A stretch of DNA of 45,184 nt from Alistipes onderdonkii (GCA_963630185.1 CAVGMG010000001.1:1-45184); one strand, 5' to 3'; positions 19,058-37,300 are shown, numbered from the stretch's first letter. The notes: generated by a model not told the origin, from the letters alone. A program made the numbers and translations.

Positions 19058-19080
19058 GAAAAAAAAGGAGGGGGCGAGAG

Positions 19081-21210: not shown

Positions 21211-21239
21211 CAGCTTGTCCAAAGAGGAGACCCAATCAC

Positions 21240-24200
21240 GTGACCGACGACATTCTCCATTCGCAAGACCCGGCGGCGTCCGACGACGCCGCGCCGAAGG
21301 ACGCCGCCTCAAGCGGCGTGAACGACGACGCCGTCCTCCACGCCCCCGACCTCCAGAGGGCGGCGGCGCGCGCGCTCGTGGCCGTTCCGAAGGACGAGGA
21401 CGACTATTCGGCGCGCGTCCGCGCGAAGACGCTTTCCGAGGCGCTCGGCCGCGCCATCGCCCTCGCGAAGCGCGAGGCCCCGGACGGGACCGCCGCGCCC
21501 GAGGAGCGCGACGCCGCCGAGCGCGCGACGGCCGACGCGATTGGCGCGACGCTCACCGGCAAGCACGACTACGACGGGGCGATGTGGAACCGCCAGAGGC
21601 CGTTCGCGTCCGGCGCGGCCTACGCGGCGCACATGCGCGACCTCGTCCTCAACAGCCCGGACGCCGGTCTCACGGAGGAGGCCAAGGCGTTCTACGCGGC
21701 CGATTACGACACGCAGGTGCGCCTCGCGCTCGAACACGAAGGGACGCTCGACGCCGTCAAGCGCGTCGCGGCCGACGCGCTTGACGCGCTGCGCCCCGTC
21801 TCCCGCCCGCTCTCGCGGCTTGAGGAGTCGGAGGCGGACGACGAGACGCGCGGGGCATCGGCGACCGTCTTCGTCGCCAACATGGGCGGCACGGACATTG
21901 ACGAAAAGACGCTCGACGCGGCGAAGGCGAAGGTCGCCGCGTTCCGCGAGAGGCGGCGGCGCGAGGAGATCCGCCGGAAATACGAGGCGAAGCTCAATGC
22001 CGACAACGCCTGGAACGCCTTGACGAGCATCCTGCCGACGCTCTCGGAGGACGCGCAGACGTGCGCGAAGGCGATCCTGGACTCGCCGGAGAACAAGTTG
22101 CCCTACGAGCACTACGCAAAGTTCAACGCGCTTCCGCGCCGCGAGCGCGAGCTCGTCGTCCAGACGCGCCAGCTCGCGAAGGACAGGGTCGACTCGGGCG
22201 TCTGGAACACGCTCCAGGACGCCGGGATCGGCGCGTTCAACGTCGCCTCGGCCGTCGTCGCGGCGCCGTTCCGGCAGGGGGCGAAGCTCGGGCGCGGCAT
22301 CTACGACGCCGTGGCGGGCCTCAACGCGCCGGAGACAGACCCGAGCGACGTCCGCGACGCCATCACCAGCGCCGACGAGGCGGGGCTCGACGTGAACGAG
22401 CTCGCCGTCAGGCGGCAGCTCCTCTGGCAGGCGACCGGCGACTTCCTTGCCGGCGGCGACCTCGAAAGCGCCGCGTTGCCGCAGCTCCAGTTCGAACAGG
22501 TCTGCGAAGACCACGGCGTCGTCGGCGAGGCGGTGATCGGCGCGGTCTCGACGCTTCCCTACATGGCGGCGGCGGCGATCCCGCGCGTCGGCCTGGGGCT
22601 TGTCGCCCTGGAGGCGATGCAGGAGTTCGACGACCACGTCGCCCTGAACGGCGGCGACATCACCGACCGCCGCTACCTCATGTCGTCGTTCGTGATGGGC
22701 GGGCTCTACGCCTACGTCGAACGCCTCCAGGTCGAGAGGCTCATCGGCGGCGTCAGCGAGCAGCGCGTCCGCGAAGGGCTTCTCAAGGGCTTCTGGAGCG
22801 GCATCAAGAACGGGACGGTGCCGAGGGTTTTGACGGTCGAGACGCTCTCCGAGTCGATCCAGGAGGGCTTGCAGAACGGCGTCATGGCCGTCAACAACGC
22901 CTACGCCCTGGACGAGGACGCCGTCCGCGGCTTCGGCGAGGCGTTCGTCGACGACTTCGTCGGCTCGCTCGGGACGATGGCGATCGTCGGCGCGGGCGGG
23001 CTCGTGGTCGGGCACGCCCGGCGAAGCGGTCTGCACGTCCGGGGGCGTGACGGGCTGTCGGCGGCGGACATGCGCCGCCTGGAGCGCTCCGCCGACCTCA
23101 CGAACCTCTACCGGACGATGTTCGCGCACGACAACATGGTCGAGGCGGCGGCGCGGTCGTCCAATTACCGCCGCCGCGCGATGGGCGAGGAGCTCCAGGC
23201 GCTGCGCGGCCGCTGGCTGGAGGGCGGCAAGGCCGCTCTCGTCGCGCAAGGCGGCGTCAGCGAGCAGGCGGCCGAGAGCCTCGACGGCTTCTTCGCCGCG
23301 CTCCGCGCCGCCGAGGGGTCGGAGGCGGTGTCCGCCGCCTCGTCGGCGCTCGGCGAATGGAACGCCGCGCGCGGCCTCGAAGCGTCGCCGAAGGCGGGCG
23401 AGAGGGGCGACATCGGGCAGCAATACCTCGAAAACCTGATCCGTGCGTTCACGGACGGCGGCATGTCGCGCGACGACTTTACGGGTCGCCTCGTCTCGAT
23501 GGGGTTCTCCGAGAAGGGCGCGGGCGACTACGCCGCCTGGGCGGCCCTCGAACGCGCCGTCCGCGAGAGGGCGGCGCAGGTCGGCGCGTTCGTCGAAGGG
23601 CGATACGAGCGAAAATACGGTTCCAACGCGGCGGAGAGCGCCGACGTGAGCCGCGTCAGGAAGTCCTTCCAGAACCTCGACCGGGCGCGGAGCGTCTGGG
23701 CGCAAGGCCTGGGCGTCTACAGCCGCAACGCCGACGGTTCGGTGCAAGACCCCGGCGCAAAAGCCCTTGAGGCGTTCGGTTTCGCGAAGGAGGACGCCGA
23801 GTCGCTTTCCCGGCTGTTCCACTACGAACGCGCGGCGGCCTGTTCGCGCGTCGCGCTGGACGGCGTCCGCGCCCTCTACGAAAAGGCGACAAAAGGGCGC
23901 GTCGGCGGCAGGGAGGCCCTCGCGAGAGAATTCAAGGGGCGCGTCGTGCGCCTTCCGGCCGGCACGGACGCCAAGGGCAGGGAGACGTTTGGCGACTTCA
24001 TCCGCTTCGAGATGCCGGGCGGCCGGGGCGAGGCCTTCGTCCGGATCGTCGAGACCAGGGCCGTCGAGCCGGACTTCTCGAAGGCCAATCCTTTCGTCGC
24101 CGAGTCGGTCGCCGAAACGGCGAAGGGCTGGGCGAAGCCCGTCACGGCGGACGACTGGATGCGGGCGACGCCCGACGAGCGCAGGAGGATCTGGAGGGAA

Positions 24201-27200
24201 CACGGCCTGCACGACGAGGGCTTGTTCGTGGCAGACCCGACCGTCTCGCTCGTCCTCGACGGCGACCCGTCCGCGCGCGTCGACTCCGACGGGGCGAAGC
24301 GTCTCGTCTTCGGGACGATCGCGCTTGCCGACGAGTCGGGCGTCAAGACGCTTGACGACCTTTCGCCGGTGAAAATCGTCGACTCGTCCGCCGGCTTCCA
24401 CGAGGTCTACCACGCCTGGGAGCACTTCATGCGCGCGACGGGGCAGTGGACGGAGAAGGAGGAGGCGGCGCTCGCCGCGAAATACGGCAAGGCCCTCGGC
24501 GGCCGCCACGACGAAGAGGCGGCGGCGAACGCGATGCGCAGCTACATGAACCGGCGCATTGAAGGGCGGATGTCTGCCGAGGACGAGACGAGCCCCTTCG
24601 GGAAAATCTACGCGCTCGCCAGGAGGCTCGTCCGGCGCGGCGAGGAGATGAAGGCGAAAGAGCGCATCGCGTCGACCGCCGAGGAGGCCTTCTTCGACCA
24701 GATCGTCGCCGACCGCTATTCGGGCGTCGGCGAACTCGGAAAGCCCGAGAAGAAGGAGGAGAAGGGCGGCGAGAAGGGAAAGTCGGAAGCCTCCGCCGCG
24801 CCGCAGATGCCGGGGCGCAAGGAGACATCAGTCGCCGCGCCCGCCCCTGCGGCGTCGTCGACGGAGGCGGGCTCTTCCGCGTCGAAGCCCGGAGCCTCGC
24901 CTCTTCCCGCCGCGCAGAGGGGGTGGACGGCCTACACGCCGACGGGGAACGTCAAGGTCGGCGGGCATTACGCCGTCGTCGACCTCTCGGAGATCGTCCA
25001 CTCGAACAACCCGGCCTACGCGCTCTACATGCGCGCGCAGCTTCGCAACCGCAAGGACAACAAGGCCGAGGAGGACACGCGAAAGGACATCGTCAACAAC
25101 TTCCAGGCCGAGAGGCTGCTTGAAGCGCCCGACACGGCGAACGGCGCGCCGATCGTGTTCGCCGCGCCGGACGAGAAGGGCGTCAGCCGCCTGTTCGTCC
25201 TGTCCGGGAACGGGCGCGTCCTCGTCCTCAACGAGCTCGCGGAGCGCCACCTCTACGACCGCTACAGGAACGTCATGAAGGCGTGGGCGGCCGAGAACGG
25301 CCTTGCCGTGCCGGAGGGCGAGACGCCGGTGCTCGTGCGCGTCGTCACGGACTTCGGCGGCGCGACGCGCGAGCAGGTCGCCGACCTCTCGAACACGAAC
25401 TCGATCCAGCAGTATACCGAGGAGGAGCAGGCGCGCGCGGACGCGGAGGTGGTCAAGGCGCTCGGCATCGCGGGCCTCTACCACGCGAACGCGAACGGCA
25501 CGGCCGACATGACGCCCGGCGTCAACGACGAATTCTTCGCGGCGTTCATCCGGGGCGTCGGCGACACCTCGCTCTACAACTCCGACCGCTCGCTCACGGA
25601 GACCGCCCGCGTCCGCGCCGTCCGCGCGCTTCTGGCGATCGCCGTCGGGCAGGGGCCTCGCGGCCGCGACGTCGTCCGGAAGCTGGTCGAGCAGACCGAC
25701 ACGCTCAACATCGCGCGGCAGAAGAACGCGGCGGCGATCATGGCCGCCGCCGTCGCCTCGCTTGAAGAGAAGGACGCCTACGCGATCGGGCCGGACCTCT
25801 CCCGCGCGATGGCCGACTTCGTCGACTTCGCCGAGAGGAGGAAGGCCGGGAAGGTCGCCACCTTCGACGACTACTACAACCAGATGGACCTCCTTGACGC
25901 GCCGAGCGAGATCTCGCGCGAGATCCTCCGGCTCTTCGGGTCCAAGCAGCCTGCGGCGGACATCGCCGAATACGTGACCGTCTACTGCAACGCGGCGGCG
26001 CAGGAAGACCCGACCGGCGGGCTTTTCGGAAAGGACGCCGCCAGGAGCCGCCTCGACGTCTGGAACGACGCGAAGAGGCTTGTGGACTCTCGTCGCGTGG
26101 CGGACGGCGGCGCGGCGCGGCATTCGTTCAAGGCCGAGACGAGGACGCTCTACCACGGCAGCGCGGCGGACTGGATCCGCCCCGACCTCCGGCACGTCGG
26201 CGAGGGGCAGGGCGGCGACTACCAGGGCTACGGGCTCAACATGACCACGAGCCGCTCCGGCGCGGAGCTCTGGGCGTCCGTCGCCAAGACGCAGCGCGCC
26301 CTCCGCGCCAAGGGGCCGATCGAAGGCGTCAAGGCCTTCTTCGCCCCGAAATTCGTCTACTCGGCCGAGATGGACAAGTCCGCGCACGTGGTCGGCTACT
26401 TCGACCCCGTTTCGCCGGACGTCGCCGAAGCCGTCCGCGCCGCGCTGGACGCGGAGGCGATTCCGCTGTCGGAGGAGGACGAGGAGGCGTTCGCGAAGCT
26501 TGCCGGGCGTCCGTTCGAGCGCCTGGCGAAGTTCGTCGCGTCCCGCGAGAGGTTCGGCGTCAGGATCTCGCCGAAGACGGCGGCGGACGTCCTCGTTCGC
26601 GCCGGGATCGACGCGAGCTGGACGCCGTCCGTCTCCGGCGACGCGGCGACAGACCGCGACTACACCGTCTACAACGTCGCGCGGCTCACGAACTACCACC
26701 AGTGGGCGAACGGCGTCCAGCGGCATTCGTTCAAGGCCGCCGCGCCCGAGGTGACGGCGTCCGATTTCGACGCGGCGATTGAAAAATACGGCGAGGCCGA
26801 AGACGTGTCGCAGGCCGTCTACGCGCTTCCGGACGGGCGGCTCCTGCGCGGCAAGGGCGTCGAGATCACGCGCGGCGGACGGACGTTCACGTCGTTCGGG
26901 CACGACGGCCTCGCCGAAGACGTCATGAAGAAGGTCGCGGCGAAAGCGTCCGATGGAAAAAGCCCCGCCGCCTCCCTGGACGAGAGGATGGGGGCGGCGC
27001 GGCGGGCGATCGCGAGGGCCGGCGCCATCCGCCTCGGATGGGACGGAAGCCTCCTTGAAACCTTCAAGGAGCCGACTCCTGCCCAGTGCGACAGGCTCTA
27101 CGACGTCGTCTACGAGGCCTACGACCTCGCGGAGAGGCAGGGTGACGTCCGTGGCGTCACCGTCGACGTCTCGGACGCGGACGGCGTCGTCGCCTTCGCG

Positions 27201-30200
27201 GTCGCCTACCGCGCCGGGACGTCGCCGCGCCGGATCGTCGAAGACCTGCGCGGGTGGTATCGCGAGGGCGTCCTGCCGCTCGGCGCGAAAGGCCCGGCGG
27301 CCGACCTCGCGCAGGTCGAGGCCTCGCCGAGGCACTCGATCGCCGGGGTCGACTTCAGCGCGATGGCGAAATACTACCAGGGCGACGTCCGCGAGATCGC
27401 GCGGGAGCTCAAGCGGTCGAACCCCTACGCCCTGAAGCTCGCGGCCGAGGCGATGGCGAGGGCCGTCCCGGACGGCGCGGTGCTCGTCCCCGTGCCGGGC
27501 CACGACGGACGCGCGGGCGACACGTTCGCCCTGGCGAACGAGATCGCCGCGATCACCGGCTCGCCCGTCGTCGAGGCGCTGCGCGGCACGCCGCGCCGCG
27601 CCGTCTACGAGCAGAAGCGCGAGGGCGTCCTGCCGTCCGCGTCGGCGCTCGGCTTCAGGCGTTTCGCCGCCCTGCCGCCCGGCCGCGAGGTCGTCTTCGT
27701 CGACAACGTCGTCGGGACCGGCACGACGGCGGTCGCGGCGCGCGAGGCGCTCGGGACGGGGCGCGTCCTGGCGTTCGCGTGGGACCACACCGCGCCGCGC
27801 CCGGTCGGCGTCGTCGGCGGGCTCGACGGCGCGGCGCGGCACTCGTTCGCCGGGCTGCGCGGGCAGGGCGCGGCGGGCGTCCGCGCCGTCGGCGACGCCG
27901 AGGCGCTGGAGTCGCGCGGCGTCGGCCGCGAGGCGGTCTTCCGCCTCACGGGGTGGTATCGCGGCGCGGACGGGCGCTGGCGCGTGGAGCTTCCGTTCCA
28001 CGGCGCGTTCGTCTTCGAGGGCGACTTCGACGACGGCCTCGTCAAGGGCTACCGCACCGTCGGCGACTACTTCGACTGGCCGGAGCTCTTCCAGGCCTAC
28101 CCCGAGCTGAAGGACGTCGAGGTGCGCTTCGACGACCTCCCCGACGACGTGCGCGGCGACTTCGACCCGAAAACCAAGACGATCCGCATCGCGAACGCCG
28201 TCCGCCGGGGCGGGTCCGGCGCCCTGGCGCGGCGCCGCGTCGCGCCGGTCATGGTGCACGAGATCCAGCACGCGATCCAGTCCATCGAGAACCACGCGCG
28301 CGGCGGCGACCCCGACGACCTGCTCGCGCTGGACCGGAAGAAGGCGCTCGACGAGGTCTTCCGCCTGTCGCTCGCGCGCGCCCTCGCGAAGACCAAGGCC
28401 GAGAAGGCCGAGATTTCGGAGAAGATCGAGGAGCTCGAGCGCAGCCTCGCCGCCGACGCCGAGGCCGCGTTCGAGCGATACTACCGCCTCGCCGGAGAGG
28501 TCGAGGCGCGGAACGCGGCCCTGCGCTTCTCCAAGAGCCCGTCGTGGCGGCTTTCGCATCCGCCGTGGGAGACGGAGGAGGTCGGGCGCGACCGGCAGCT
28601 CGTCGACTTCAAGGAGGAGGACGGCGTCCACTGGGACGACGCCGCGCCGGACGCCCGCCGCTCGGTCACGTCGGCCTGGGGCGAGGGCTTCCCGGATGTC
28701 GCCTACATGACGACGCGCAAGTTCGTCCTCGCGAACCCGGAGCTCGACAGGCTCCACCGCGAGGCGAAGGCCGGAAGCCTGGCTGCCGCGCTCGCGTTCG
28801 TCGACCGTCTTCTGCCGGACGCGCCGACGAGCGAGTCGGAGAAGGTGCGCGTCCGCAAGATCAAGGATCTCGCGGCAGACCACCCGACGGCCGTTCTCGT
28901 CCCGGTCGTCGCGATGGAGCGGACAGGCCACAACATGCTGCCGTTCGCCTACGCGCAGAGAATCGGCGAGATCACGGGCCTCAAGCTCGCGAGGGGCGTC
29001 AAGCAGAGCGTCAAGGCGAACCACACCGGCGCGAGCGGACTCGAGCGCCTCGTGCGCCGCGCCGAGTTCGTCGGGGACGTGACGCCCGGCCGCGAATACG
29101 TCATGGTCGACGACCACGTCACGCAGGGCGGGACGCTCGCGGCCTTGCGACGTCACGTCGCGGATCGCGGCGGAAAGGTCGTCGCGGCGACGACCTTGAC
29201 AACGTCGCGCGGAAGTAGTATACTGTCTCCACGTGATTCGACGCTTGAAAAACTCGCCGCGAAGTTCGCAAGCGTCCTTGCAGAACTCAAGGAAGCAGGT
29301 GCAGAAGATGCCATCGCAGACCTTACAGAATCCCAAGCCCGACAGCTCCTCAAATACTCCGTTGACTCCTTTGGAGATCTTGCAGCTCGAGCACTCGTTC
29401 GCCGTCGCGGCGAGGGAGCTCATCAAGATGGGCCGGGCGACGCCGGACTCGTTCGAGCCGCGCTTCGACCCGGAGGCTCCGACCAAGCTGGAGCTCGTCC
29501 AGGGATGGCCGGGGGAATGGGAGATCCTGCCGGACGGGGAGCTCAGATACCTCTGCGGGACGTTCGATGGTCTTTCGCAGGACGATCCAAGGCACTTGAT
29601 GTAGGCGACGTCCTTCCGGGGCTGCGCCCGCTCTACGACCATGACGCGAAGCGGCTCGGCGAGACGTTCTTCGCCAGGTCGCCGCTGATCAGGGGCCCCG
29701 TCTCGAAGGATCTTCACGACGCGATTGACGAGGCCGGCAGGGCCGGGGAGATGCCGGACGGCGAGAAGCGCGGCCTTCTCGAACGGCTCGTCGGCGAGAT
29801 CAAGGCGTCCAAGGAGGGGAAAGTCCTCTTCGGACGCTACAGGACGGGCGACTCGTGGGACGGCACGGAGGACGACTGGCTCCGCCCGGAGCGCGTCAGG
29901 CTGCGCGAGCGTATCTTCCGCGACCTCGTCCTGGCGCCGGTCACGTCCGCCAACAGCGAGGCGCTTGAGCCGAACCGGCTGACCGGCAAGGCGAAAGGCG
30001 CGGAGGCGATTGCTCGTTCGAACGCGGCGAACCCCGACCTGCCGAAGATCTCGCTTGGTGCGGACGCCCGCTACGCGCCGTCGCGCGAGCGGCGGCTCGA
30101 CATCGTGATGGGGCCTTCGGCGGCCGGGAAGTCGAGCGTGTTCGTCGACCTCCTGTCTGTCTGCCACCGGGCGCGCGTCTTCGATTCGGACGCGGTCAAG

Positions 30201-33200
30201 AAGCGTCTGCCGGGCTTCGACGGCGGCAACGGCGCGAGCTTCGTCCACGAGGAGTCGAGCCGGATCAACAAGGAGATGATCCGCCGCTTCCTCGACATGA
30301 ACACGGGCGAGAACGTCGTGCTGCCGATCGTCGGGGCGACGGAGAAGGGCGTCAGGAGATACGTCGAGCTCTTCCGCGACGCCGGCTACGCAATCTACCT
30401 GCACAACGACCGCGTGCCGATTCTGCACGCCTTCCACCGCGCCTGGCTGCGCACGCTCGCGACAGGCCGCCTCATCGCGCCGGAGGTGTTTCTCGGCTGC
30501 ATGGACAATCCGTCGGTCGTCTTCGAGCGCCTACGCCGCGAGGTCGACTTCTGGGACGAGTTCGACAACGACGACGTCACCGTCGGCGCCGCGCCGCGCT
30601 ACGTGCGCGGCAACTACTCGGAGCCGGCCTACGGGACGGCGTCGGAAGCGGCGTCGGCGAAAGAGCCCGGCCTGGAAAGCCTTGAAGACTGGAAGAAGCG
30701 TCTTGCAACCCCTCAGGCGATTGCCGACATGGCCGCCGCGATGGACATGGAGGAGCGCGGCGACAAGGCCGCCGCGCCCGTCCTCCGGCAGGGCGAGTTC
30801 GACTTCGGACCGGACGCGGAGGCGAGCTCCAGGCACGCGATCCGCGCCGACCTCGGCGAGAGGCGCGAGAAGGCGGCGGCCGAGGCGCTGACGAACTGGA
30901 TCACCTACTTCCGGCTCTCGCGCGGCTCCGTCCCCATGGCGAAGACCATCGCGCGGATGGGCCTTGCCATGGGCATGGGCGTCGTCGACACGAAGCGGAT
31001 CCTCCAGTCGTCGGAAAGCCGCGCCGAGCAGATGCGCGGGTCGCTCATCGAGAAGGCCGCCCAGAACGGCGACGTCGCCACGACCCTCGCGCTTTTGAAG
31101 CGCGAGGACGGCATCGACGAGTCGATCGACGGCCTTCTCGCCGGCTCCGTCGCCCAGGGCGGCGAGCTGACGCGCGCGGGCTCCGGGCGGATCAACACGA
31201 TCATCGGAAAGCGCGTCGAGCAGATGATGCGCGACTTCTCGGCCGCGTCGCTCGCCGACATGGAGGGCGAGACAGGCCTCGACCTCGCGGCGGAAATCCT
31301 CGAGCAGAACCCCGACGCCTTCGCGGGCGAGGTCAAGTCCGCCCGTGGCGCGGACGCGGCGGACGACGCCGGCAAGGACGCCGCGTCCGACGCGGACAAG
31401 GAAGAGGGCGGCGGCGCGGCCGACGAGAGCCGTCTTTCGGATCTCGAACGCCATGTCCGCGAGCGTGCGCGGCAGGACGCGCTCAAGAAGGTCGAGTCGT
31501 TCATCGCCCGGGCGAAGGCCCGCGCCGAGGAGAACAGGGCCCGCGCCGAGGAGCGGCGTCGGCGCGGCGAAGCGGACGGCGGGCGCGACGGGGCCGGCGT
31601 CGGCGACGGCGCGGACGGCAGGCCCGCCGCCGTGGACATGGATCAGGCCGTGTCGGACGCGATGGGCGGGACGAACCCGAAGAACGTCAAGGCCGACTTC
31701 AGGAGCAAGGAGGAGTTCGCGGCGTTTCTGCGCGTCTGGGCGGAGCACAAGTTCGACAAGACGCACGGGCTCTCGTCGCTCGGCAAGACGGAGCGCGGCA
31801 GGCTCTTCGCCGAGTTCTACCGGATCACCGTCCGCAAGGAGCTCCAGGACCTCGCCGACAAGCTCCTCGCGCCGAAGGACGAGAGCGGGTTCACGGTCTA
31901 CCGCCTCGCCAGGCTCGGCAACGGCGCGAGGAATGTCGTGAGCCGCCGGCTCGCCCGGATGGAGAAGGGGATTCGCCCGGACGCCATCGAGCGGATGAGC
32001 GCCGACGTCTTCGCCTTCATCAACGCGGCCGCGATCCGCGTCAGCCGGACCGACCTCGTCAACGAGTTCAAGAAGGAGATCAAGTCCAGATACGTCAAGG
32101 GCGAGCGATACGAAGACCTCAAGCTTGACGCCGACCGCCGCGTGACGGGCTGGGTGGAGGAGGCGGCGCGATACATCTGCCGCGTCTGCGACCTCTCGAA
32201 GCGCGGCGCCAACGGCGACATGTCGCAGCTCGAACGCGAGCGCAAGGCCCTGCTCGACGTCATCGACCGCCGGGCGGACGTCTACGACGAGTCCGGCAAG
32301 GACGCCGTCCGGGCGCCCGTCGAGGACATGGAGACGAAGAAGGCCATGTGGAAGCTCGCGCTCCTCGACAAATACGGCGCGATGGCCTCGCTCATGCCGG
32401 GCGAGATCCTCGACCTGCGCCAGGCCGCGATCGAGCATCTTGAACGGCAGGCCGGCGAGCTCGAGCGGCTGTGGCAGGACGCGCGGGCCTACGAGGAGGG
32501 CATCCGGAGCGACCTCGCCGGCGCGATTGCCGCGCCGAACGGCCAGCGCTACCAGGAGCGCGGGTGGCTCGGCGGACGGCTCTTCGACGCGCTGAACGGG
32601 CTTCTCCGTCTTCGGCTCGAACACCTGACGCGCTTTGCGGACGAGGCGGCGCAGAAGCGGGCGAAGGAGGCCATCAACAAGGTCATCGTCCTTCTGGGCG
32701 ACGGCGAGACGGCCTACGCGCGCATGCTCCAGGACGACCGGCGGGCGCTTTTCGAGGGGCTTGCGCACATCTTCGGCCGGAACGGACGCGCGGACAACGC
32801 CGCGATCAAGCGGTATCTGAACCGCATGACCGAGCCGATCCCGGTCGAGCTCGCGCGGCGGATCTCCAGCCAGGGCTTCGTCGGCACGATGACATACGGG
32901 CAGATGCTGCAGCTTCTCGTCTCGCTGGAGCAGAGGTCGTTCAAGGACGCGGTCGAGCACAACGGACGGCAGGGGCAGGCCGAGCTGATCCGCACGTTCG
33001 AGACGACGGACGCCGACGGGCGGCGCGTCCGCGTCTTCACGGAGGAGGACGGGCTTTTCGTCGACTGGCTCCGGGCGTTCTACGCGGCCAAGCGCGACGT
33101 GATCTCGCCGGTGACGCTGCGCATGGTCGGCCAGGCGGTCGATTCGCCCGATCCGCTCTACTGCCCGGTCAGGCGCTCGATGGACGACCGCACGATGGCT

Positions 33201-34601
33201 CTTGCGGAGGCCGGCTCGACGTGGGACCCGGTCGCGGCCGTCTTTTCGCGGCGCGTGAAGAACGACCGCGACTTCGACGAGCAGGCGTCTGTCCTCGGGA
33301 TGTTCTTCGACCGTTCGCGCGAGACGGCGAAGCTCGTCGCCTGGGCGGAGCGCGGGACGATCGTCCGCGGCGTGTTCACGAGTGTCTCCGTGCAGAGCGC
33401 GATCCGCCGCGCCTTCGGCAGCGGGGAGCTGCGCAAGATCATGAAGCAGCTCGTCGCGACGTTCAACGGCGGGGAGGCCAAGTCGAAGACGTCCGGCGAG
33501 CTCGCGGCGGTCGACAAGGCCCTGAACTTCACGACCTACGCCTATCTCGGCTTCAACCCGCTTTCGGCCGCCAAGCAGACGACAAGCTTCACCGTCTGGG
33601 CGAACGCGCTGCCGGGCGGCTTCAAAGACCTCTGGAAATACATGACGCACTTCGACGCGAAGGCGCTCAGGCATTTGATGGAGTCCGAGGAATACAAGCT
33701 GCGGTATGGCGACGAGGTCGGCTCCGGGCAGGATCTCGCCACCAAGGGGCTCAACATGAATCCGTCGATGAACCCGGTCGTCCGCATGATTTCCGGGGCT
33801 GGCATGTGGATGCTCAAGAAGGGGGACTTCGCGCCGGGAGGGTGGATCGCGCAAGGCCTTTACAAAGACCTCCTCGACAGGCACATGCAGGAGGGGATGG
33901 CGTTCGACGCGGCCGACAGGCTCGCGATCACCGAGACGTTCAACATGCTAGAGGAGACGCAGCAGTCGGGCCGCACCTACAACACGAACATGCTCACGAT
34001 CGAGCACGGGCGGATCGGGCGGCTGCTGACGCAGTTCGCGACGTCGCCCCTGCAGCAGTTGCAGTACGAGACCCAGGCGTGGCGCGAATGGCGCGACATG
34101 GTGCGATACGGCCAAGGCAAGCGGAAGATCGCGGCGGCGCGGCAAAAGCTCGTCCGGGCGGCGGTCATCAACCACCTGCTCCTGCCGGCGGCGCTCAACT
34201 TCGTGACGGCCGTCTACAAGAAGCTCATGGGCGACGAGCCGCCGTGGGAGCAAGACGGCTACCACTGGACGCTCCTCACGGAGGTTCTCCTCGGGCAGTT
34301 CGAGCGGGTGTTCTTCGTCGGGGCGTTCGCGCAGACGTCGCTCAAGGCGCTCTTTGCGCGGGAATATCCGCGCGGGAGCAAGATCCTGCCGGTCGAGGGG
34401 GCGCTCGGCATGGCGGCGTCGCTGTGCTTCACGGCGCACGACGTGGCCGCGCTGGACGCGGAGAAAGTCCGCAAGGACCTTGAGCGGCTGCTCAAATCGA
34501 CGGCGCCGACGCGGATTCCGTTCAACCTCTACCGTCGGATCGTCGGCGATTCGGACGTCGACCGCAAGGCGGCGAAGGAGAAGGCGAAGAAGCGTCAGTA
34601 G
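21240..34601 (+). CDS. Giant (4453-codon) polyvalent internal-virion/ejection-type protein carrying multiple enzyme modules
   Basis: GTG 21240 lies 9 nt after aaagaggaga. The frame is open to TAG 34599-34601. The first 781 codons of the 5234-aa track ORF are off-frame sequence of the gp15-like gene. Occupies the position of T7 gp16. See the frame anomaly at 29200-29604. Confidence 0.75.
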   Translation: MTDDILHSQDPAASDDAAPKDAASSGVNDDAVLHAPDLQRAAARALVAVPKDEDDYSARVRAKTLSEALGRAIALAKREAPDGTAAPEERDAAERATADAIGATLTGKHDYDGAMWNRQRPFASGAAYAAHMRDLVLNSPDAGLTEEAKAFYAADYDTQVRLALEHEGTLDAVKRVAADALDALRPVSRPLSRLEESEADDETRGASATVFVANMGGTDIDEKTLDAAKAKVAAFRERRRREEIRRKYEAKLNADNAWNALTSILPTLSEDAQTCAKAILDSPENKLPYEHYAKFNALPRRERELVVQTRQLAKDRVDSGVWNTLQDAGIGAFNVASAVVAAPFRQGAKLGRGIYDAVAGLNAPETDPSDVRDAITSADEAGLDVNELAVRRQLLWQATGDFLAGGDLESAALPQLQFEQVCEDHGVVGEAVIGAVSTLPYMAAAAIPRVGLGLVALEAMQEFDDHVALNGGDITDRRYLMSSFVMGGLYAYVERLQVERLIGGVSEQRVREGLLKGFWSGIKNGTVPRVLTVETLSESIQEGLQNGVMAVNNAYALDEDAVRGFGEAFVDDFVGSLGTMAIVGAGGLVVGHARRSGLHVRGRDGLSAADMRRLERSADLTNLYRTMFAHDNMVEAAARSSNYRRRAMGEELQALRGRWLEGGKAALVAQGGVSEQAAESLDGFFAALRAAEGSEAVSAASSALGEWNAARGLEASPKAGERGDIGQQYLENLIRAFTDGGMSRDDFTGRLVSMGFSEKGAGDYAAWAALERAVRERAAQVGAFVEGRYERKYGSNAAESADVSRVRKSFQNLDRARSVWAQGLGVYSRNADGSVQDPGAKALEAFGFAKEDAESLSRLFHYERAAACSRVALDGVRALYEKATKGRVGGREALAREFKGRVVRLPAGTDAKGRETFGDFIRFEMPGGRGEAFVRIVETRAVEPDFSKANPFVAESVAETAKGWAKPVTADDWMRATPDERRRIWREHGLHDEGLFVADPTVSLVLDGDPSARVDSDGAKRLVFGTIALADESGVKTLDDLSPVKIVDSSAGFHEVYHAWEHFMRATGQWTEKEEAALAAKYGKALGGRHDEEAAANAMRSYMNRRIEGRMSAEDETSPFGKIYALARRLVRRGEEMKAKERIASTAEEAFFDQIVADRYSGVGELGKPEKKEEKGGEKGKSEASAAPQMPGRKETSVAAPAPAASSTEAGSSASKPGASPLPAAQRGWTAYTPTGNVKVGGHYAVVDLSEIVHSNNPAYALYMRAQLRNRKDNKAEEDTRKDIVNNFQAERLLEAPDTANGAPIVFAAPDEKGVSRLFVLSGNGRVLVLNELAERHLYDRYRNVMKAWAAENGLAVPEGETPVLVRVVTDFGGATREQVADLSNTNSIQQYTEEEQARADAEVVKALGIAGLYHANANGTADMTPGVNDEFFAAFIRGVGDTSLYNSDRSLTETARVRAVRALLAIAVGQGPRGRDVVRKLVEQTDTLNIARQKNAAAIMAAAVASLEEKDAYAIGPDLSRAMADFVDFAERRKAGKVATFDDYYNQMDLLDAPSEISREILRLFGSKQPAADIAEYVTVYCNAAAQEDPTGGLFGKDAARSRLDVWNDAKRLVDSRRVADGGAARHSFKAETRTLYHGSAADWIRPDLRHVGEGQGGDYQGYGLNMTTSRSGAELWASVAKTQRALRAKGPIEGVKAFFAPKFVYSAEMDKSAHVVGYFDPVSPDVAEAVRAALDAEAIPLSEEDEEAFAKLAGRPFERLAKFVASRERFGVRISPKTAADVLVRAGIDASWTPSVSGDAATDRDYTVYNVARLTNYHQWANGVQRHSFKAAAPEVTASDFDAAIEKYGEAEDVSQAVYALPDGRLLRGKGVEITRGGRTFTSFGHDGLAEDVMKKVAAKASDGKSPAASLDERMGAARRAIARAGAIRLGWDGSLLETFKEPTPAQCDRLYDVVYEAYDLAERQGDVRGVTVDVSDADGVVAFAVAYRAGTSPRRIVEDLRGWYREGVLPLGAKGPAADLAQVEASPRHSIAGVDFSAMAKYYQGDVREIARELKRSNPYALKLAAEAMARAVPDGAVLVPVPGHDGRAGDTFALANEIAAITGSPVVEALRGTPRRAVYEQKREGVLPSASALGFRRFAALPPGREVVFVDNVVGTGTTAVAAREALGTGRVLAFAWDHTAPRPVGVVGGLDGAARHSFAGLRGQGAAGVRAVGDAEALESRGVGREAVFRLTGWYRGADGRWRVELPFHGAFVFEGDFDDGLVKGYRTVGDYFDWPELFQAYPELKDVEVRFDDLPDDVRGDFDPKTKTIRIANAVRRGGSGALARRRVAPVMVHEIQHAIQSIENHARGGDPDDLLALDRKKALDEVFRLSLARALAKTKAEKAEISEKIEELERSLAADAEAAFERYYRLAGEVEARNAALRFSKSPSWRLSHPPWETEEVGRDRQLVDFKEEDGVHWDDAAPDARRSVTSAWGEGFPDVAYMTTRKFVLANPELDRLHREAKAGSLAAALAFVDRLLPDAPTSESEKVRVRKIKDLAADHPTAVLVPVVAMERTGHNMLPFAYAQRIGEITGLKLARGVKQSVKANHTGASGLERLVRRAEFVGDVTPGREYVMVDDHVTQGGTLAALRRHVADRGGKVVAATTLTTSRGSSILSPRDSTLEKLAAKFASVLAELKEAGAEDAIADLTESQARQLLKYSVDSFGDLAARALVRRRGEGAHQDGPGDAGLVRAALRPGGSDQAGARPGMAGGMGDPAGRGAQIPLRDVRWSFAGRSKALDVGDVLPGLRPLYDHDAKRLGETFFARSPLIRGPVSKDLHDAIDEAGRAGEMPDGEKRGLLERLVGEIKASKEGKVLFGRYRTGDSWDGTEDDWLRPERVRLRERIFRDLVLAPVTSANSEALEPNRLTGKAKGAEAIARSNAANPDLPKISLGADARYAPSRERRLDIVMGPSAAGKSSVFVDLLSVCHRARVFDSDAVKKRLPGFDGGNGASFVHEESSRINKEMIRRFLDMNTGENVVLPIVGATEKGVRRYVELFRDAGYAIYLHNDRVPILHAFHRAWLRTLATGRLIAPEVFLGCMDNPSVVFERLRREVDFWDEFDNDDVTVGAAPRYVRGNYSEPAYGTASEAASAKEPGLESLEDWKKRLATPQAIADMAAAMDMEERGDKAAAPVLRQGEFDFGPDAEASSRHAIRADLGERREKAAAEALTNWITYFRLSRGSVPMAKTIARMGLAMGMGVVDTKRILQSSESRAEQMRGSLIEKAAQNGDVATTLALLKREDGIDESIDGLLAGSVAQGGELTRAGSGRINTIIGKRVEQMMRDFSAASLADMEGETGLDLAAEILEQNPDAFAGEVKSARGADAADDAGKDAASDADKEEGGGAADESRLSDLERHVRERARQDALKKVESFIARAKARAEENRARAEERRRRGEADGGRDGAGVGDGADGRPAAVDMDQAVSDAMGGTNPKNVKADFRSKEEFAAFLRVWAEHKFDKTHGLSSLGKTERGRLFAEFYRITVRKELQDLADKLLAPKDESGFTVYRLARLGNGARNVVSRRLARMEKGIRPDAIERMSADVFAFINAAAIRVSRTDLVNEFKKEIKSRYVKGERYEDLKLDADRRVTGWVEEAARYICRVCDLSKRGANGDMSQLERERKALLDVIDRRADVYDESGKDAVRAPVEDMETKKAMWKLALLDKYGAMASLMPGEILDLRQAAIEHLERQAGELERLWQDARAYEEGIRSDLAGAIAAPNGQRYQERGWLGGRLFDALNGLLRLRLEHLTRFADEAAQKRAKEAINKVIVLLGDGETAYARMLQDDRRALFEGLAHIFGRNGRADNAAIKRYLNRMTEPIPVELARRISSQGFVGTMTYGQMLQLLVSLEQRSFKDAVEHNGRQGQAELIRTFETTDADGRRVRVFTEEDGLFVDWLRAFYAAKRDVISPVTLRMVGQAVDSPDPLYCPVRRSMDDRTMALAEAGSTWDPVAAVFSRRVKNDRDFDEQASVLGMFFDRSRETAKLVAWAERGTIVRGVFTSVSVQSAIRRAFGSGELRKIMKQLVATFNGGEAKSKTSGELAAVDKALNFTTYAYLGFNPLSAAKQTTSFTVWANALPGGFKDLWKYMTHFDAKALRHLMESEEYKLRYGDEVGSGQDLATKGLNMNPSMNPVVRMISGAGMWMLKKGDFAPGGWIAQGLYKDLLDRHMQEGMAFDAADRLAITETFNMLEETQQSGRTYNTNMLTIEHGRIGRLLTQFATSPLQQLQYETQAWREWRDMVRYGQGKRKIAAARQKLVRAAVINHLLLPAALNFVTAVYKKLMGDEPPWEQDGYHWTLLTEVLLGQFERVFFVGAFAQTSLKALFAREYPRGSKILPVEGALGMAASLCFTAHDVAALDAEKVRKDLERLLKSTAPTRIPFNLYRRIVGDSDVDRKAAKEKAKKRQ
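22220..23015 (+). other. Cluster of about 4 hydrophobic (membrane-insertion-like) segments in the giant protein
   Basis: GIGAFNVASAVVAAPF, VIGAVSTLPYMAAAAIPRVGLGLVAL, LMSSFVMGGLYAYV, FVGSLGTMAIVGAGGLVVG. Confidence 0.4.
24399..24413 (+). other. HEXXH motif 1 (HEVYH) in the giant protein
   Basis: cac gag gtc tac cac, in context SSAGFHEVYHAWEHF. Confidence 0.4.
24921..25440 (+). other. ParB/sulfiredoxin-like module in the giant protein
   Basis: GHYAVVDLSEIVHSNNP...RLFVLSGNGRVLVLNELAE. GNGR (25206-25217) occupies the place of the ParB GxxR motif. It follows a Lys/Glu/Ser/Pro-rich linker. Confidence 0.35.
26118..26720 (+). other. ADP-ribosyltransferase-like module (H-Y-[E/D] type)
   Basis: TLYHGS (His), YQGYGLNMTTS (Tyr) and RDYTVYN (acidic position, 26652-26672), in the order and spacing expected of PARP/diphtheria-toxin-like ARTs. 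Confidence 0.4.
27330..27836 (+). other. Phosphoribosyltransferase (PRTase, ComF-like) module 1
   Basis: VLVPVPGHDGRAGD...REVVFVDNVVGTGTT (PRPP loop at 27690-27728; D-N instead of D-D). Confidence 0.6.
27837..28620 (+). other. Zincin-like metallopeptidase module (polyvalent-protein type), HEIQH at 28257-28271
   Basis: DWPELFQAYPELKDVEVRF...APVMVHEIQHAIQSIENHARGG...YYRLAGEVEARNAALR. Confidence 0.55.
28846..29215 (+). other. Phosphoribosyltransferase module 2
   Basis: AVLVPVVAMERTGHNMLP...REYVMVDDHVTQGGTLAAL (PRPP loop at 29097-29135). Confidence 0.6.
30060..30560 (+). other. Zeta-toxin-like P-loop kinase module
   Basis: Walker A GPSAAGKS at 30111-30134, followed by VFDSDAVKKRLP and FVHEESSRINKEMIRRFL, as in zeta/PezT-type kinases. 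Confidence 0.6.
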
Positions 34602-34872: not shown

Positions 34873-34912
34873 CATATCGCGCTTTGTTATTGACTTATCA
34901 AAGCGCGATATG
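34873..34912. promoter_or_regulatory. Perfect 14-bp inverted repeat (catatcgcgctttg N12 caaagcgcgatatg) bracketing a -35 box; operator candidate
   Basis: Read directly. The 12-nt spacer ttattgacttat contains TTGACT. Confidence 0.5.
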
Positions 34913-34919
34913 ATATACT
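34890..34919 (+). promoter_or_regulatory. Sigma70-like promoter TTGACT-18 nt-TATACT
   Basis: -35 at 34890-34895 and -10 at 34914-34919, inside a GC-poor intergenic region. Confidence 0.45.
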
Positions 34920-34964
34920 ACACAAATGTTGCCTTGAGAAGGGCGAATCCATCTACACCCCAGT

Positions 34965-34981
34965 AGACGACATGGAGACGA
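34965..34981 (+). repeat. Left copy of the (g)gagacga-N-catggagacga direct repeat (integrase arm-site candidate)
   Basis: agacgacatggagacga. The 11-mer catggagacga recurs at 35156-35166. Confidence 0.4.
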
Positions 34982-35073
34982 CCTCTGAAAGGTGATGCCA
35001 GATAAGTAGCCGAACTGGTGAAAAGAAGTGCGGAATCGAATCGTGATACGGCAGTCCCGACACGCTTCCGCTC

Positions 35074-35096
35074 TTCAAATCCAGCCCCCGCTACCA
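35074..35096 (+). other. tRNA 3'-end-like segment (T-loop, T-stem 3' strand, acceptor 3' strand, discriminator, CCA); attP core candidate
   Basis: ttcaaat|ccagc|ccccgct|a|cca has exactly the 7+5+7+1+3 layout of a tRNA 3' end. There is no matching 5' half upstream. A terminator follows and the integrase is adjacent. Confidence 0.45.
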
Positions 35097-35104
35097 ATAA
35101 GAAA

Positions 35105-35137
35105 TGCCGAAGTTGTTGAGCTTCGGCACTTTTTATT
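35105..35137 (+). terminator. Rho-independent terminator
   Basis: 8-bp stem tgccgaag/cttcggca, 8-nt loop, then ctttttatt. Confidence 0.7.
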
Positions 35138-35145
35138 GTGTGGGG

Positions 35146-35166
35146 TGGAGACGAACATGGAGACGA
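35146..35166 (+). repeat. Right copy of the ggagacga-N-catggagacga direct repeat (arm-site candidate)
   Basis: tggagacgaacatggagacga. Same orientation as the left copy, on the other side of the core candidate. Confidence 0.4.
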
Positions 35167-35365
35167 GAAGGGTATTATGCGAATGAACTTTAAGAATGTC
35201 AAAGCGTGATTTAATATGGCACAGAGCGCGATTCGGTATTATGGTTATGGGATTTGACTTTGACAAGCCTTATGCTCGCTGACTTCGGGAAAGCGTGAAC
35301 GAATTGTTGGTTGTCTACAGAAATATGAACAGGATTATCGACCGCGATGGATTGGAATTATTGAC

Positions 35366-36481
35366 ATGAGCCTATACAAGAAGCCTGGCAGCGGGTATTG
35401 GTACATGAACATCTATCGCGGTCCTGGCATGAGACGCATCCAGAAGTCCACCGGCACGAAGGACGAGTCAGAGGCGCGGATCATCGAACAGGGCTTCATG
35501 CGCGTCAACCGTGGCGAGACGACACGCGAAAAGATGGTCGCTCTCCTGGACAGCGTTCTGGGTCCCGAAGAGGCCGGAATGCCGCTCGGAGAAATCGGCC
35601 CCTTCTACCGCGCCGCCGTCGAGAGCGAAAGACGCAGGCTTGGCGAAAAGACGATGCAGACGCGCGTAAACCTCGCCGGACGCTTCGCCGTGTGGGCAAA
35701 GGAGAACACGCGGGCACGAAACGCGGACGACGTCACGGTGGCCGTCGCCTGGCAGTTCAACGAGCACATCGGCAAGACCACGGACGTCACGAACAAGACG
35801 CGAAACGCCTACATGAGCGAACTCGGCACGATCTGGGCGATGCTCATGAAGCGCGGCAAGGCCAAGTCGAACCCCTGGAGCGTTCCGAGGGTGCAGCGCG
35901 ACCGCGACCAGGAACAGACCGGCCGCGCCTGGACCGCCGAGGAGGAGCGGCGAATCTTCGACGCCGCCCTCGAAGTCGGGCACGAATGGTTCGAGGCGTG
36001 CCTGATCGCTCGGTATACCGGCTTGCGCCTCACCGACGTCAAGTCGCTCAAATGGAGCGAGGTCGACTTCGAGCGCGGCATGATCGCGCTCGAACCGAAG
36101 AAGACCAGGCGGCACGGAATCCTCGTCAAAATCCCCCTGCATCCGAAGCTCAAGGCGGTGCTTGCAGACCGAAAGGCCCGTGCGGCGGCCGGCGAGGCCT
36201 TCGTCCTCCCGGAACGGGCGCGGCATGACGGCAAGAAATACTTCAAGGGCGACATGCCGTTCTCGAAGATCCTCGAAAGAGCCAAGGTCGCCGAACCTGA
36301 CGGCTCGGAGCACGTTCTCTCGTTCCACTGCTGGCGGCATACGTTCGACACAAGGCTGAGCGAGGCCGGCGTCGACCAGGAGACGCGCATGGCCATGACC
36401 GGCCACACCGTCAAGGCGACCGAGTCCATCTACAACCACGACTGGAGCCGCTTCGAGAAGGCCATTGCCGCGATGGCGTAA
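35366..36481 (+). CDS. int: Tyrosine recombinase / phage integrase
   Basis: 371 aa. ARYTGLRLTDV (Arg), HCWRHTF (His-x-x-Arg), MTGH and ESIYNH (Tyr) catalytic signature. Confidence 0.85.
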   Translation: MSLYKKPGSGYWYMNIYRGPGMRRIQKSTGTKDESEARIIEQGFMRVNRGETTREKMVALLDSVLGPEEAGMPLGEIGPFYRAAVESERRRLGEKTMQTRVNLAGRFAVWAKENTRARNADDVTVAVAWQFNEHIGKTTDVTNKTRNAYMSELGTIWAMLMKRGKAKSNPWSVPRVQRDRDQEQTGRAWTAEEERRIFDAALEVGHEWFEACLIARYTGLRLTDVKSLKWSEVDFERGMIALEPKKTRRHGILVKIPLHPKLKAVLADRKARAAAGEAFVLPERARHDGKKYFKGDMPFSKILERAKVAEPDGSEHVLSFHCWRHTFDTRLSEAGVDQETRMAMTGHTVKATESIYNHDWSRFEKAIAAMA

Positions 36482-36492
36482 GACAAGACGGA

Positions 36493-36757
36493 GACGCTCG
36501 CGCATGGCTGCGCGAGCACAGGACACCGTGGAAACGAGGTTGCGAGAACAAGGCGGCGAACGAGGCGGCGACGGCGCAGGACTAAGACGCTCGCGCATGG
36601 CTGCGCGAGCACAGAACACCGTGAAAACGAGGTTGCGAGAACAAGGCGGCGACGGCGCAGGACGGAGACGCTCGCGTATGACTGCGCGAGCACAGGACAC
36701 CGTGAAAACGAGGTTGTGAAAACGAGGCGGCGAAAGAGATGGCGACGGCGCAAGACG
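36493..36757 (+). repeat. Three tandem copies (93, 81 and about 90 bp) of a unit starting with a 9-bp-stem hairpin gctcgcgca-tggc-tgcgcgagc
   Basis: Units start at 36493, 36586 and 36667. Unit 1 carries a 12-nt internal duplication (aacgaggcggcg). Copy 3 has t/g changes that keep the stem paired. Confidence 0.8.
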
Positions 36758-36822
36758 CGAGCATAGAGAACTTGGACAAAACAGAGCCAGTCGTGAGAAC
36801 GAGTCAAAAAAAGGAGGCGAAA

Positions 36823-37182
36823 ATGAAAGGCGAGATAGACGTTCAGTATGAGGACGGATCGTGGCATCTTTGGAGCTACGACAAGCCGCCGACCAAAGAG
36901 GAGGAGGAAGCGAGAAAGAAAAGGGAAGAGCGCTGGCTTCGCATCGAGTCGATAATCGGAATGCCGATCTTGCCAAGAACTCGCGAATCCATCGAGCAGA
37001 AAATGAAAATGATCTCGCTCACGGACGAGGAGAAGCGGGAGATCTTCCGGCGATGGAACATTGTCGAGTCAGACGAGGAGCGAAACAGGCGAAAACGCAG
37101 CGCGCAAATAAAACGCGACCTGCTGTCGGTCGTGTTGATACTTGCGATCATCGGCTTTATCATTGCAATCATCGCAAAGTAG
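36823..37182 (+). CDS. GC-poor moron: charged coiled-coil protein with a C-terminal membrane anchor (119 aa)
   Basis: ATG 36823 after aaggagg. KEEEEARKKREERW... followed by LLSVVLILAIIGFIIAIIAK. Codon usage is unlike the rest of the genome. Confidence 0.6.
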   Translation: MKGEIDVQYEDGSWHLWSYDKPPTKEEEEARKKREERWLRIESIIGMPILPRTRESIEQKMKMISLTDEEKREIFRRWNIVESDEERNRRKRSAQIKRDLLSVVLILAIIGFIIAIIAK

Positions 37183-37238
37183 ACGCATCGGATTATCGGC
37201 ACGTGTAAGATTTGTATAAAAAAAGTATAACCAACCGC

Positions 37239-37268
37239 TTGACAGGTGTGCTCACCTTTTGATACAAT
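37239..37268 (+). promoter_or_regulatory. Strong sigma70-like promoter TTGACA-18 nt-TACAAT with an operator motif in its spacer
   Basis: -35 at 37239-37244 and -10 at 37263-37268. ggtgtgctcacc at 37245-37256. Confidence 0.6.
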
Positions 37269-37300
37269 CTACGCCAGATTGGTCAAGAAAGGGAAAACAC

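Follow-up and report, generated by a model that had tools for sequence, protein, structure and literature searches.

In bacteriophage phiX174, gene B lies inside gene A and gene E inside gene D, the sigma-70 promoter pB is placed within the coding sequence of gene A, and both proteins are made; the overlap is usually ascribed to the size constraint of a 5.4-kb single-stranded DNA genome. In phage lambda, Rz1 is embedded in the +1 frame of Rz and both genes are functional, an arrangement conserved in many phages, where embedded, overlapped and separated variants occur; Rz1 lacks its own promoter and encodes a lipoprotein that acts together with Rz. To our knowledge, few long out-of-frame nested genes are well supported outside tiny viral genomes, and gene callers never report them. 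Here we describe a likely further case in a 45,184-nt stretch of DNA from Alistipes onderdonkii (GCA_963630185.1, CAVGMG010000001.1:1-45184; hereafter the window), which is one entire 45-kb contig of a 1.6-Mb, 70%-complete metagenome-assembled genome and holds a phage element. A giant gene of this element, encoding a putative polyvalent virion protein, appears to enclose a complete small gene (29196-29604) in its +1 frame, with its own promoter and ribosome-binding site and a start at ATG 29308, while the giant protein would be read straight through. From the comparative evidence presented below, we consider this arrangement likely.

For phiX174, the cluster of overlapping genes and its canonical promoters (pA, pB and pD) have been described (bioRxiv 10.1101/2020.03.05.979765). 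As with genes A and B of that phage, the window holds a whole gene in another frame inside a larger gene, with a sigma-70-type promoter, here at the level of the consensus, in the codons of the enclosing gene. Unlike phiX174, the genome is that of a 45-kb tailed phage, the enclosing gene measures 13.4 kb, the proteins are unrelated, and the nested gene falls in a disordered linker between modules and is also found free-standing elsewhere. The resemblance to Rz/Rz1 lies in a +1-frame gene wholly embedded in a tailed-phage gene; unlike Rz1, the product is an acidic protein without a lipobox, with no similarity in sequence or fold, and its functional link to the enclosing gene is conjectural. The architecture is thus of a known kind (phiX174 A/B, lambda Rz/Rz1). 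What is new here is a family of small proteins nested in the linker that follows a PRTase module, expression signals written in rare synonymous codons, and free-standing relatives beside restriction-modification genes.

The giant gene carries the Pfam modules ddrB-ParB (E 7e-17), LPD23 (E 1e-9), PRTase and Zeta_toxin/AAA_33. Judged by this content, it is a polyvalent protein gene in the sense of Iyer et al. (2017, PMC5512222), in which an LPD-type module is joined to several unrelated effector and enzyme modules in a phage context; like the proteins described there, it unites ddrB-ParB, LPD23, PRTase and a zeta-like kinase in one prophage-encoded polypeptide. Iyer et al. (2017, PMC5512222) recorded PRTase modules chiefly in polyvalent proteins of (pro)phages from Proteobacteria and Verrucomicrobiae, and a search of their text for the term 'internal promoter' gave no match. 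In a full-text search, 'polyvalent protein' and 'overlapping gene' were found together only in an unrelated phage description.

The evidence for a second gene begins with a local loss of codon bias. We call f0 the frame of the long open reading frame (ORF), whose codons begin at multiples of 3, and +1 the frame shifted downstream by one base. The original prediction had described a frame discontinuity at 29200-29604, and a per-frame scan of G+C content at third codon positions (GC3), which it had proposed, was run in sliding windows of 30 codons and confirmed that the bias moves to +1 and back. GC3 of f0 was 0.83-1.0 up to about 29200, 0.40-0.50 over 29210-29600 and 0.87-0.97 from about 29600, and that of +1 reached up to 0.73 over 29240-29390 and 0.87-0.97 over 29360-29570. 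Over 29377-29601, G+C by codon position in +1 was 0.65/0.43/0.88, compared with 0.69/0.47/0.93 for the coding pattern of the whole gene. The earlier hand counts of codons ending in G or C proved exact (68/77 in +1 over 29371-29601, 32/74 in f0), and the reported GC-poor patch with atypical f0 codons at 29215-29385 has a G+C content of 0.51 vs 0.695 for the gene. The +1 frame is bounded, as noted before, by the TGA at 29197 and the TAG at 29602, with normal f0 bias back from about 29600; f0 itself has no stop and no ATG, GTG or TTG between 29517 and 29751, and hence no near start after the TAG. Of the discontinuity, then, one part stood and the other did not: the +1 signal is that of a real gene, and the giant protein is continuous, as its f0 reading aligns to homologues.

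This continuity was established with 22 giant homologues spanning the region (3532-6621 aa). In the closest of them (P0002), all 135 residues of the f0 translation of 29199-29603 were aligned at 51% identity (E 2e-30, compositional adjustment), and the same translation was also alignable to P0003 to P0009. In the multiple alignment, the PRTase motif YVMVDDHVTQGGT...GGKVVAATTLT is kept in all homologues, and the linker is flanked on one side by the helices after the PRTase core and on the other by a conserved block reading LPGLxxY...TRFAKA...ISKELNxxIDEA. The Arg/Gly-rich f0 peptide therefore does have a counterpart at the protein level, a finding that the original prediction regarded as speaking against its interpretation; the substitution analysis below indicates that the similarity is a by-product of selection on +1.

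The +1 frame is conserved as an ORF with fixed ends. A full HMMER scan with the +1 peptide from ATG 29308 against 1.84 billion cluster representatives matched a 91-aa protein (P0024; 64% identity, E 6e-25), whose alignment begins at residue 2 and runs to the C-terminal end, and a 56-aa protein (P0025), and profile searches added 10 more proteins of the type ending in DPRHLM and 13 of a shorter type. The ATG and the ending ...(D/E)DPRHLM-stop are kept at the loci of P0024, P0025, P0005, P0007 and P0009. At the loci of three more distant giant homologues (L003, L034 and L033, 47% f0 identity), +1 is open, with an ATG at the same position and the ending (D/E)DPRHLM-stop. One of these, L033, has an f0 linker that is 45 residues longer and of low complexity (Gly/Ala/Ser/Arg), and its +1 reading is a 139-aa protein of ordinary appearance, rich in Trp and Asp/Glu. 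DNA-level comparisons here and below cover the relatives other than P0002 and P0003, the two closest giant homologues; the lineages with the same ORF boundaries are 47-60% identical to the window in the flanking f0 protein.

These results bear on the proposal that about 77 codons of one module were scrambled, in this genome only, by two compensating indels of recent origin or by a sequencing or assembly error. A jump of the bias to +1 and back is the pattern that two compensating indels would give, and the contigs of relatives often break just upstream. On the other hand, independent assemblies of the above divergence show both frames arranged alike, with the ORF starting and stopping at the same places, and the f0 reading aligns to its homologues with no change of frame. 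This end-to-end alignment therefore excludes, for practical purposes, an assembly error or an indel pair private to this genome.

Database entries for the small protein arose only from contigs that by chance end within the giant gene. Thus, the contigs of L004, L005 and L006 begin just upstream of the small ORF, inside or adjoining the PRTase coding region, and the small ORF was called as a gene there because the giant ORF is truncated. Independent metagenome assemblies break repeatedly at this place, within the first 20-300 nt of L004, L005, L006, L037, L038 and L039, probably because the two PRTase modules of the giant gene act as a repeat for assemblers. At the very ends of two of them (L004 1-55 and L005 1-30), the sequence upstream of TTGACA is not PRTase coding, and f0 has a TAA two codons before this box; these ends are either chimeric or belong to a variant whose small gene and zeta-containing part no longer follow the upstream modules.

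Several collections returned nothing comparable. DNA and tblastn searches of phage and plasmid collections gave no match, IMG/VR contained only distant relatives of the f0 region and no ORF of the DPRHLM type, and a 400-genome sample of the phylum contained no DPRHLM-type copy; with a broader profile, four genomes of that sample matched besides the window's own. Twelve prophage contigs of IMG/VR (L021-L032, at about 3150-3330) hold more distant PRTase genes in which +1 is open over the PRTase end and f0 stops soon after in several. Their +1 reading, ...L(T/R)xSE(I/V)xxL(R/K)Q...ARKAF... followed by a stop, could be a further branch of nested genes or the shadow of a conserved f0 helix.

Upstream of the small ORF, the GC-poor patch holds a candidate set of expression signals. 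A scan of 28600-30200 for the sigma-70 consensus returned a single site, TTGACA-17-TATACT, matching at 11/12 positions (mean of 0.1 sites in shuffles). In the whole window, on both strands, six sites reach at least 10/12, and of these only that at 29196 falls within a gene. All 12 relatives with DNA aligned across the -35 site retain TTGAC. Among relatives, L004 has TTGACA-17-TATATT, L006 and L039 have TTGACT-17-TATACT, L003, L033 and L034 have TTGACG-17-TATACT, and the clade with shorter ORFs has TTGACN-17-TACCAT or TACATT. Moreover, relatives carry GCAGGTG or GCAGGAA 6-7 nt before their ATG. The putative leader showed no more structure than shuffles (z = 0.26) and had no Rfam match.

The codons that spell these signals are rare in the enclosing gene. 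Over the -10 area, f0 reads Ser-Ser-Ile-Leu-Ser as AGT AGT ATA CTG TCT, and elsewhere in the gene ATA serves for 0/124 Ile, AGT for 1/225 Ser, TTG for 10/353 Leu and ACA for 9/179 Thr. The same is true of the ribosome-binding site and the start, with GCA used for 7/631 Ala, GGT for 8/372 Gly and GAT for 13/314 Asp (the ATG requires an Asp GAT). Over 29196-29307, only 16/37 f0 codons end in G or C, compared with 0.93 elsewhere. The signals are thus written in codons that the giant gene avoids, and the patch is therefore GC-poor and atypical in f0. The remaining five sites of at least 10/12 (34890, 35202 and 35266 on the minus strand, 37135 and 37239) are clustered beside the integrase gene (34.9-37.3 kb), and 34890-37270 is probably a lysogeny and early control region; the site at 34890 has the -10 hexamer TATACT in common with the internal promoter.

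The first explanation listed by the original prediction was a programmed +1 frameshift at tcc ttt gga g (29367-29376), which would yield a truncated giant protein with an alternative C-terminus of 77 residues beside the full-length form. The +1 codon bias indeed starts near this site, +1 is open across it, the first 20 residues of +1 look disordered and dictated by f0, and the conserved part of +1 could in principle be reached by a shift. Nevertheless, the site differs in every relative (CCTTTGGAG, CACTTTAGAG, CGGGTTAGAG, GCGCTCCGAG, AACCTCCGAG) and presents neither a stop nor a conserved rare or hungry codon in the A site, while independent initiation is conserved, with an ATG and a Shine-Dalgarno sequence 6-7 nt upstream in relatives and, in L004, two +1 stops directly before the ATG. 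A frameshift would also leave the conserved promoter, 85 nt upstream, with no role, and is at odds with free-standing copies that use their own ATG with no giant gene upstream. We therefore regard a programmed shift as very improbable. A return from +1 to f0 at the TAG was considered as well and rejected, as no re-pairing is possible at CAC TTG ATG TAG.

Selection on the two frames was examined through mismatch periodicity among the window, L004 and L006 and through the rates of each class of change. In the downstream flank, mismatches were most frequent at f0 position 3 (0.62 vs 0.39 and 0.29), in the C-terminal two-thirds of the overlap at +1 position 3, the first position in f0 (0.43 vs 0.30 and 0.31), and the first 69 nt of the overlap retained the f0 pattern, with the peak at f0 position 3 (0.49). 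Each difference was also classed by its effect in both frames. In the C-terminal part, comparison of the window with L004 and L006 gave 0.63 and 0.58 changes per site that were synonymous in +1 and altered f0, and only 0.25 and 0.28 that were synonymous in f0 and altered +1 (Fisher p 2e-4 and 5e-3); the latter were no more frequent than changes altering both proteins (0.24 and 0.29 per site). The close, unsaturated pair L006/L039 showed +1-synonymous changes at 9/43 sites, f0-synonymous changes at 3/61 and changes of both proteins at 3/97. In this part, the +1-synonymous rate is 2-4 times the f0-synonymous rate, and in the N-terminal third the f0-synonymous rate is the higher one in 4/5 diverged pairs. 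The rates in the C-terminal part thus indicate that the +1 protein is under purifying selection and that the amino-acid sequence of f0 is not.

The same conclusion can be read from the last seven f0 codons, which run RSKALDV, RRSSSSDV, RPATFDV, RSAAPHV, RSSASHV, RSASPHV and RSEASDV across lineages. The variable residues (K/S/A/E, A/S/T, L/S/F/P, D/H) all fall within the sets allowed by a +1 reading of GAY CCN MGN CAY YTN ATG TAR, and at the YYT codon all four permitted f0 residues (F, S, L, P) occur. A reading without any second gene, in which base composition alone produces the +1 signal through a Gly/Ala/Arg/Pro-rich linker that came from a lower-GC relative, has in its favor that +1 third positions are f0 first positions, that codons for G, A, R, P, D and E all begin with G or C, and that, with the f0 peptide taken as given, an open +1 frame has a fair probability (0.09-0.42 per locus). 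However, it leaves unexplained an f0 GC3 of 0.43 in a gene of 0.93, the conserved ATG, stop and promoter, the excess of +1-synonymous changes together with f0 variation that preserves DPRHLM, and the free-standing copies with a broken f0, and we consider it extremely improbable.

Although its amino-acid sequence drifts over the C-terminal part, f0 remains open. Both f0 and +1 are free of stops in 12/12 nested copies, and the third frame has 2-5. When the +1 peptide was fixed and its codons were redrawn from the gene's own usage, the probability that f0 is open was 0.10 (window), 0.008, 0.026, 0.22 and 0.004 in five lineages, with a range of 0.004-0.25 per locus in the close clade; the lineages being related, these per-locus values are not independent and cannot simply be multiplied. 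By this comparison, the openness of f0 is under selection in nested copies. It is here that an alternative has to be weighed in which the small +1 gene is real but f0 is not translated across it, the giant protein being two proteins and the linker merely an open stretch. The lack of purifying selection on the f0 residues of the C-terminal part agrees with this idea, as does the behavior of gene callers, which annotate two units on truncated contigs, the small ORF and a gene downstream of it. It would not explain, however, why f0 is free of stops in every nested copy when synonymous shuffles of +1 usually create one, nor why f0 acquires 1-4 stops once the gene is free-standing; and the f0 bias resumes at 29604, yet f0 has no start in the interval given above. 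We judge it very improbable. A second gene starting at ATG 29505 or 29517, also on the original list, was rejected, since no homologue has a Met at either place.

The members of the shorter type form a clade of their own, with products of about 60 aa and a core reading Y-x-LTPSEIASLRQD...W...LG(L/I)P; the window's protein has the first helix in common with them. They are nested after the PRTase module, at the same place, in distant giant genes (L007, L008, L009, L012, L013, L047 and L048). Some members (L013, P0034, P0035, P0037 and P0039) have an extra conserved +1 segment before the core (...SQVPYExYLxMSxxERxxxPYExxPY). In these copies, the conserved core lies over an unrelated f0 linker, so that +1 is the conserved frame there too. 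Downstream of the ORF, L013 has no Pfam match, and in L009 and L047, as judged by reading rather than by a Pfam scan, the sequence reads differently or f0 ends. The free-standing copies likewise have no zeta-like neighbor among their called genes. As the ORF is present without a zeta-like module downstream, it tracks the PRTase module and not the kinase.

Four free-standing cases were found, in which no giant gene lies upstream and the small ORF has an ATG of its own. The copy of L045 follows genes for a BglII-like endonuclease, an MT-A70 methyltransferase and a T5orf172/HARE-HTH protein and is translationally coupled to a 45-codon gene. That of L043/L044 has a RhuM-like gene on one side and, on the other, a gene whose motifs read like those of a cytosine-5 methyltransferase (with no database match). 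The copy of L040/L041 has a GGAGG ribosome-binding site and stands upstream of a gene that reads like RtcA (by sequence reading), and L042 is the fourth case. In 4/4 of them, the frame equivalent to f0 contains 1-4 stops while the small ORF is intact, and this broken frame still resembles the giant linker or the PRTase tail. The selection results and the free-standing copies together thus point to two overlapping coding frames in the nested copies and to an autonomous function of the small protein. At L040 (538-800) and L041 (812-1075), P0041 and the RtcA-like gene that follows it both start with MKDFIEID, and a cassette appears to have been inserted after codon 8 of the RtcA-like gene with duplication of its start.

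In silico, then, the comparisons show that both frames are maintained, that +1 is under purifying selection, that the promoter, Shine-Dalgarno sequence and ATG are conserved, and that free-standing homologues carry stops in f0. Among the four options of the original prediction, this supports an overprinted small gene through its conserved ORF, selection in its own frame and free-standing copies, and argues against compensating indels, given identical layouts and ORF boundaries in lineages so far apart. Some observations weigh against the reading of a complete nested gene. Besides the relatedness of the lineages mentioned above, few substitutions could be counted for the least saturated or least diverged pairs, and in the first 23 codons conservation of +1 is inseparable from that of f0. 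The promoter is a match to the sigma-70 consensus only, and the host probably belongs to the Kiritimatiellia, whose promoters have been little studied; no terminator was found after the nested ORF. The small protein and its relatives had no match in Pfam, PHROGs, NCBIfam or PADLOC, Foldseek found nothing at E <=0.001 in PDB and BFVD, and the structural model is only moderately confident.

This model was obtained for a product of 98 aa, 11.0 kDa and isoelectric point 4.5, with no signal peptide or lipobox. AlphaFold2 with alignments of 11 and 15 rows gave a mean predicted local distance difference test (pLDDT) score of 71-72 in both cases. About 20 N-terminal residues, which are dictated by f0, are predicted to be disordered, followed by a confident helix (residues 21-40), a short helix, a beta-hairpin and the conserved C-terminal tail. 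A PDB profile search gave a best E of 0.19, to designed proteins.

We propose the following scheme, with the coordinates of Table 1. A sigma-70-type promoter (TTGACA-17-TATACT) embedded in the last codons of the PRTase module would be followed by a GC-poor leader of about 77 nt, an AGGTG ribosome site and the ATG. Over the first 23 codons, the giant frame would be the more constrained one, and over the remaining 75 the +1 protein; in the latter stretch, the giant protein would be a disordered Arg/Gly/Ala-rich linker whose sole visible requirement is the absence of a stop. The genome's codon bias would appear in +1 and not in f0 because +1 third positions are the only sites that evolve freely. 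The full-length giant protein would be made from a late transcript, and the small protein from either transcript, including independently from its own promoter, for instance in a lysogen; both the firing of this promoter and its timing are inferred.

Table 1. Features of the giant gene and of the putative nested gene (window coordinates)
Feature	Position	Strand	Remarks
Giant polyvalent virion-protein gene, f0	21240..34601	+	4453 codons; reads straight through the overlap
Second PRTase module core, f0	29085..29213	+	Pfam PF00156; 3' end holds the -35 box
Putative -35 hexamer TTGACA	29196..29201	+	f0 codons Leu TTG, Thr ACA
Putative -10 hexamer TATACT, 17-nt spacer	29219..29224	+	f0 codons agT ATA CTg
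Putative 5' leader of nested transcript, ~77 nt	29231..29307	+	Inferred; start ~29231 from the -10 position only
Shine-Dalgarno-like AGGTG, 6 nt before ATG	29297..29301	+	f0 codons GCA GGT
Putative nested gene, +1 frame	29308..29604	+	ATG 29308, TAG 29602-29604; 98 aa, ends ...DDPRHLM
N-terminal third of overlap, f0 more constrained (end of PRTase-associated helices)	29308..29376	+	Mismatch periodicity and substitution rates
C-terminal two-thirds of overlap, +1 constrained	29377..29604	+	Mismatch periodicity and substitution rates
f0 linker between modules, Arg/Gly/Ala/Pro-rich, variable length	29397..29603	+	Homologues differ in length and sequence; stop-free
Zeta-toxin-like P-loop kinase module, f0	30072..30548	+	Pfam PF06414, 29.2 bits vs cut-off 22.3; downstream context, outside nested gene

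With regard to function, our best guess is that the small protein is a binding partner or an inhibitor of the PRTase effector module: wherever the nested ORF is found, it accompanies the 3' end of this module, whatever lies downstream. The locus also resembles the epsilon/zeta (PezA/PezT) systems in that a small, acidic product of about 90 aa is encoded directly before a zeta-type kinase module; unlike in these systems, the nested ORF occurs without a zeta-like module downstream (L013; also L009 and L047), and a likeness to epsilon or PezA was not found, with no Pfam or NCBIfam match at E <=1 and no PDB fold match at E <=0.001. An epsilon-like antitoxin of the downstream zeta module was rejected on both grounds. 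A prophage moron was rejected as well, as a promoter is present but no terminator was found, and the cassette lies inside a gene and not between genes.

A more specific version of this guess, which we regard as possible but doubtful, is that the small protein is an immunity protein, the cognate inhibitor of the PRTase effector module in an injected polyvalent protein, the free-standing copies by restriction-modification genes being 'orphan immunity' genes. If so, an immunity gene in the 3' end of the module and the adjoining linker would keep effector and antidote linked through module shuffling, and its own promoter would allow a lysogen to make the immunity protein without making virions. 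Bacteria or resident elements could then use orphan copies to disarm incoming phage effectors, a defense directed against an injected phage protein and not against phage DNA.

In any case, the locus offers a clean and comparatively testable example of a nested gene in a large tailed-phage genome. It suggests that a nested gene can have its expression signals spelled in rare synonymous codons of the enclosing gene, and that a polyvalent protein can owe a 'disordered linker' to the by-product reading of another gene's DNA. It also provides a handle on the unexplained PRTase module of polyvalent proteins. For annotation, local loss of codon bias in a long ORF should prompt a search for a gene in an alternative frame, and not only for frameshift errors.

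The 5' end of the giant gene was overcalled in the original prediction, which had it begin at 18897 (ORF 18897-34601, 5234 codons). The protein of the database record (P0001) has 4453 aa, matching a start at GTG 21240, and the PF00156 match corresponds to residues 3397-3439 of the translation started at 18897. A separate gene of 729 codons (GC3 0.94) lies in another frame at 19021-21210, so that the first 2.3 kb of the longer ORF (18897-21239) fall outside the giant gene; its 729-aa protein had no PHROG match. The window further carries genes for portal, major head and tail proteins, an integrase, a ParB-like protein and a reverse transcriptase, and this set therefore points to a temperate podophage-like element. 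The gene at 10152-11162, among the structural genes, matches a PHROG annotated as reverse transcriptase (phrog_1423, E 3e-50) and may be part of a diversity-generating retroelement.

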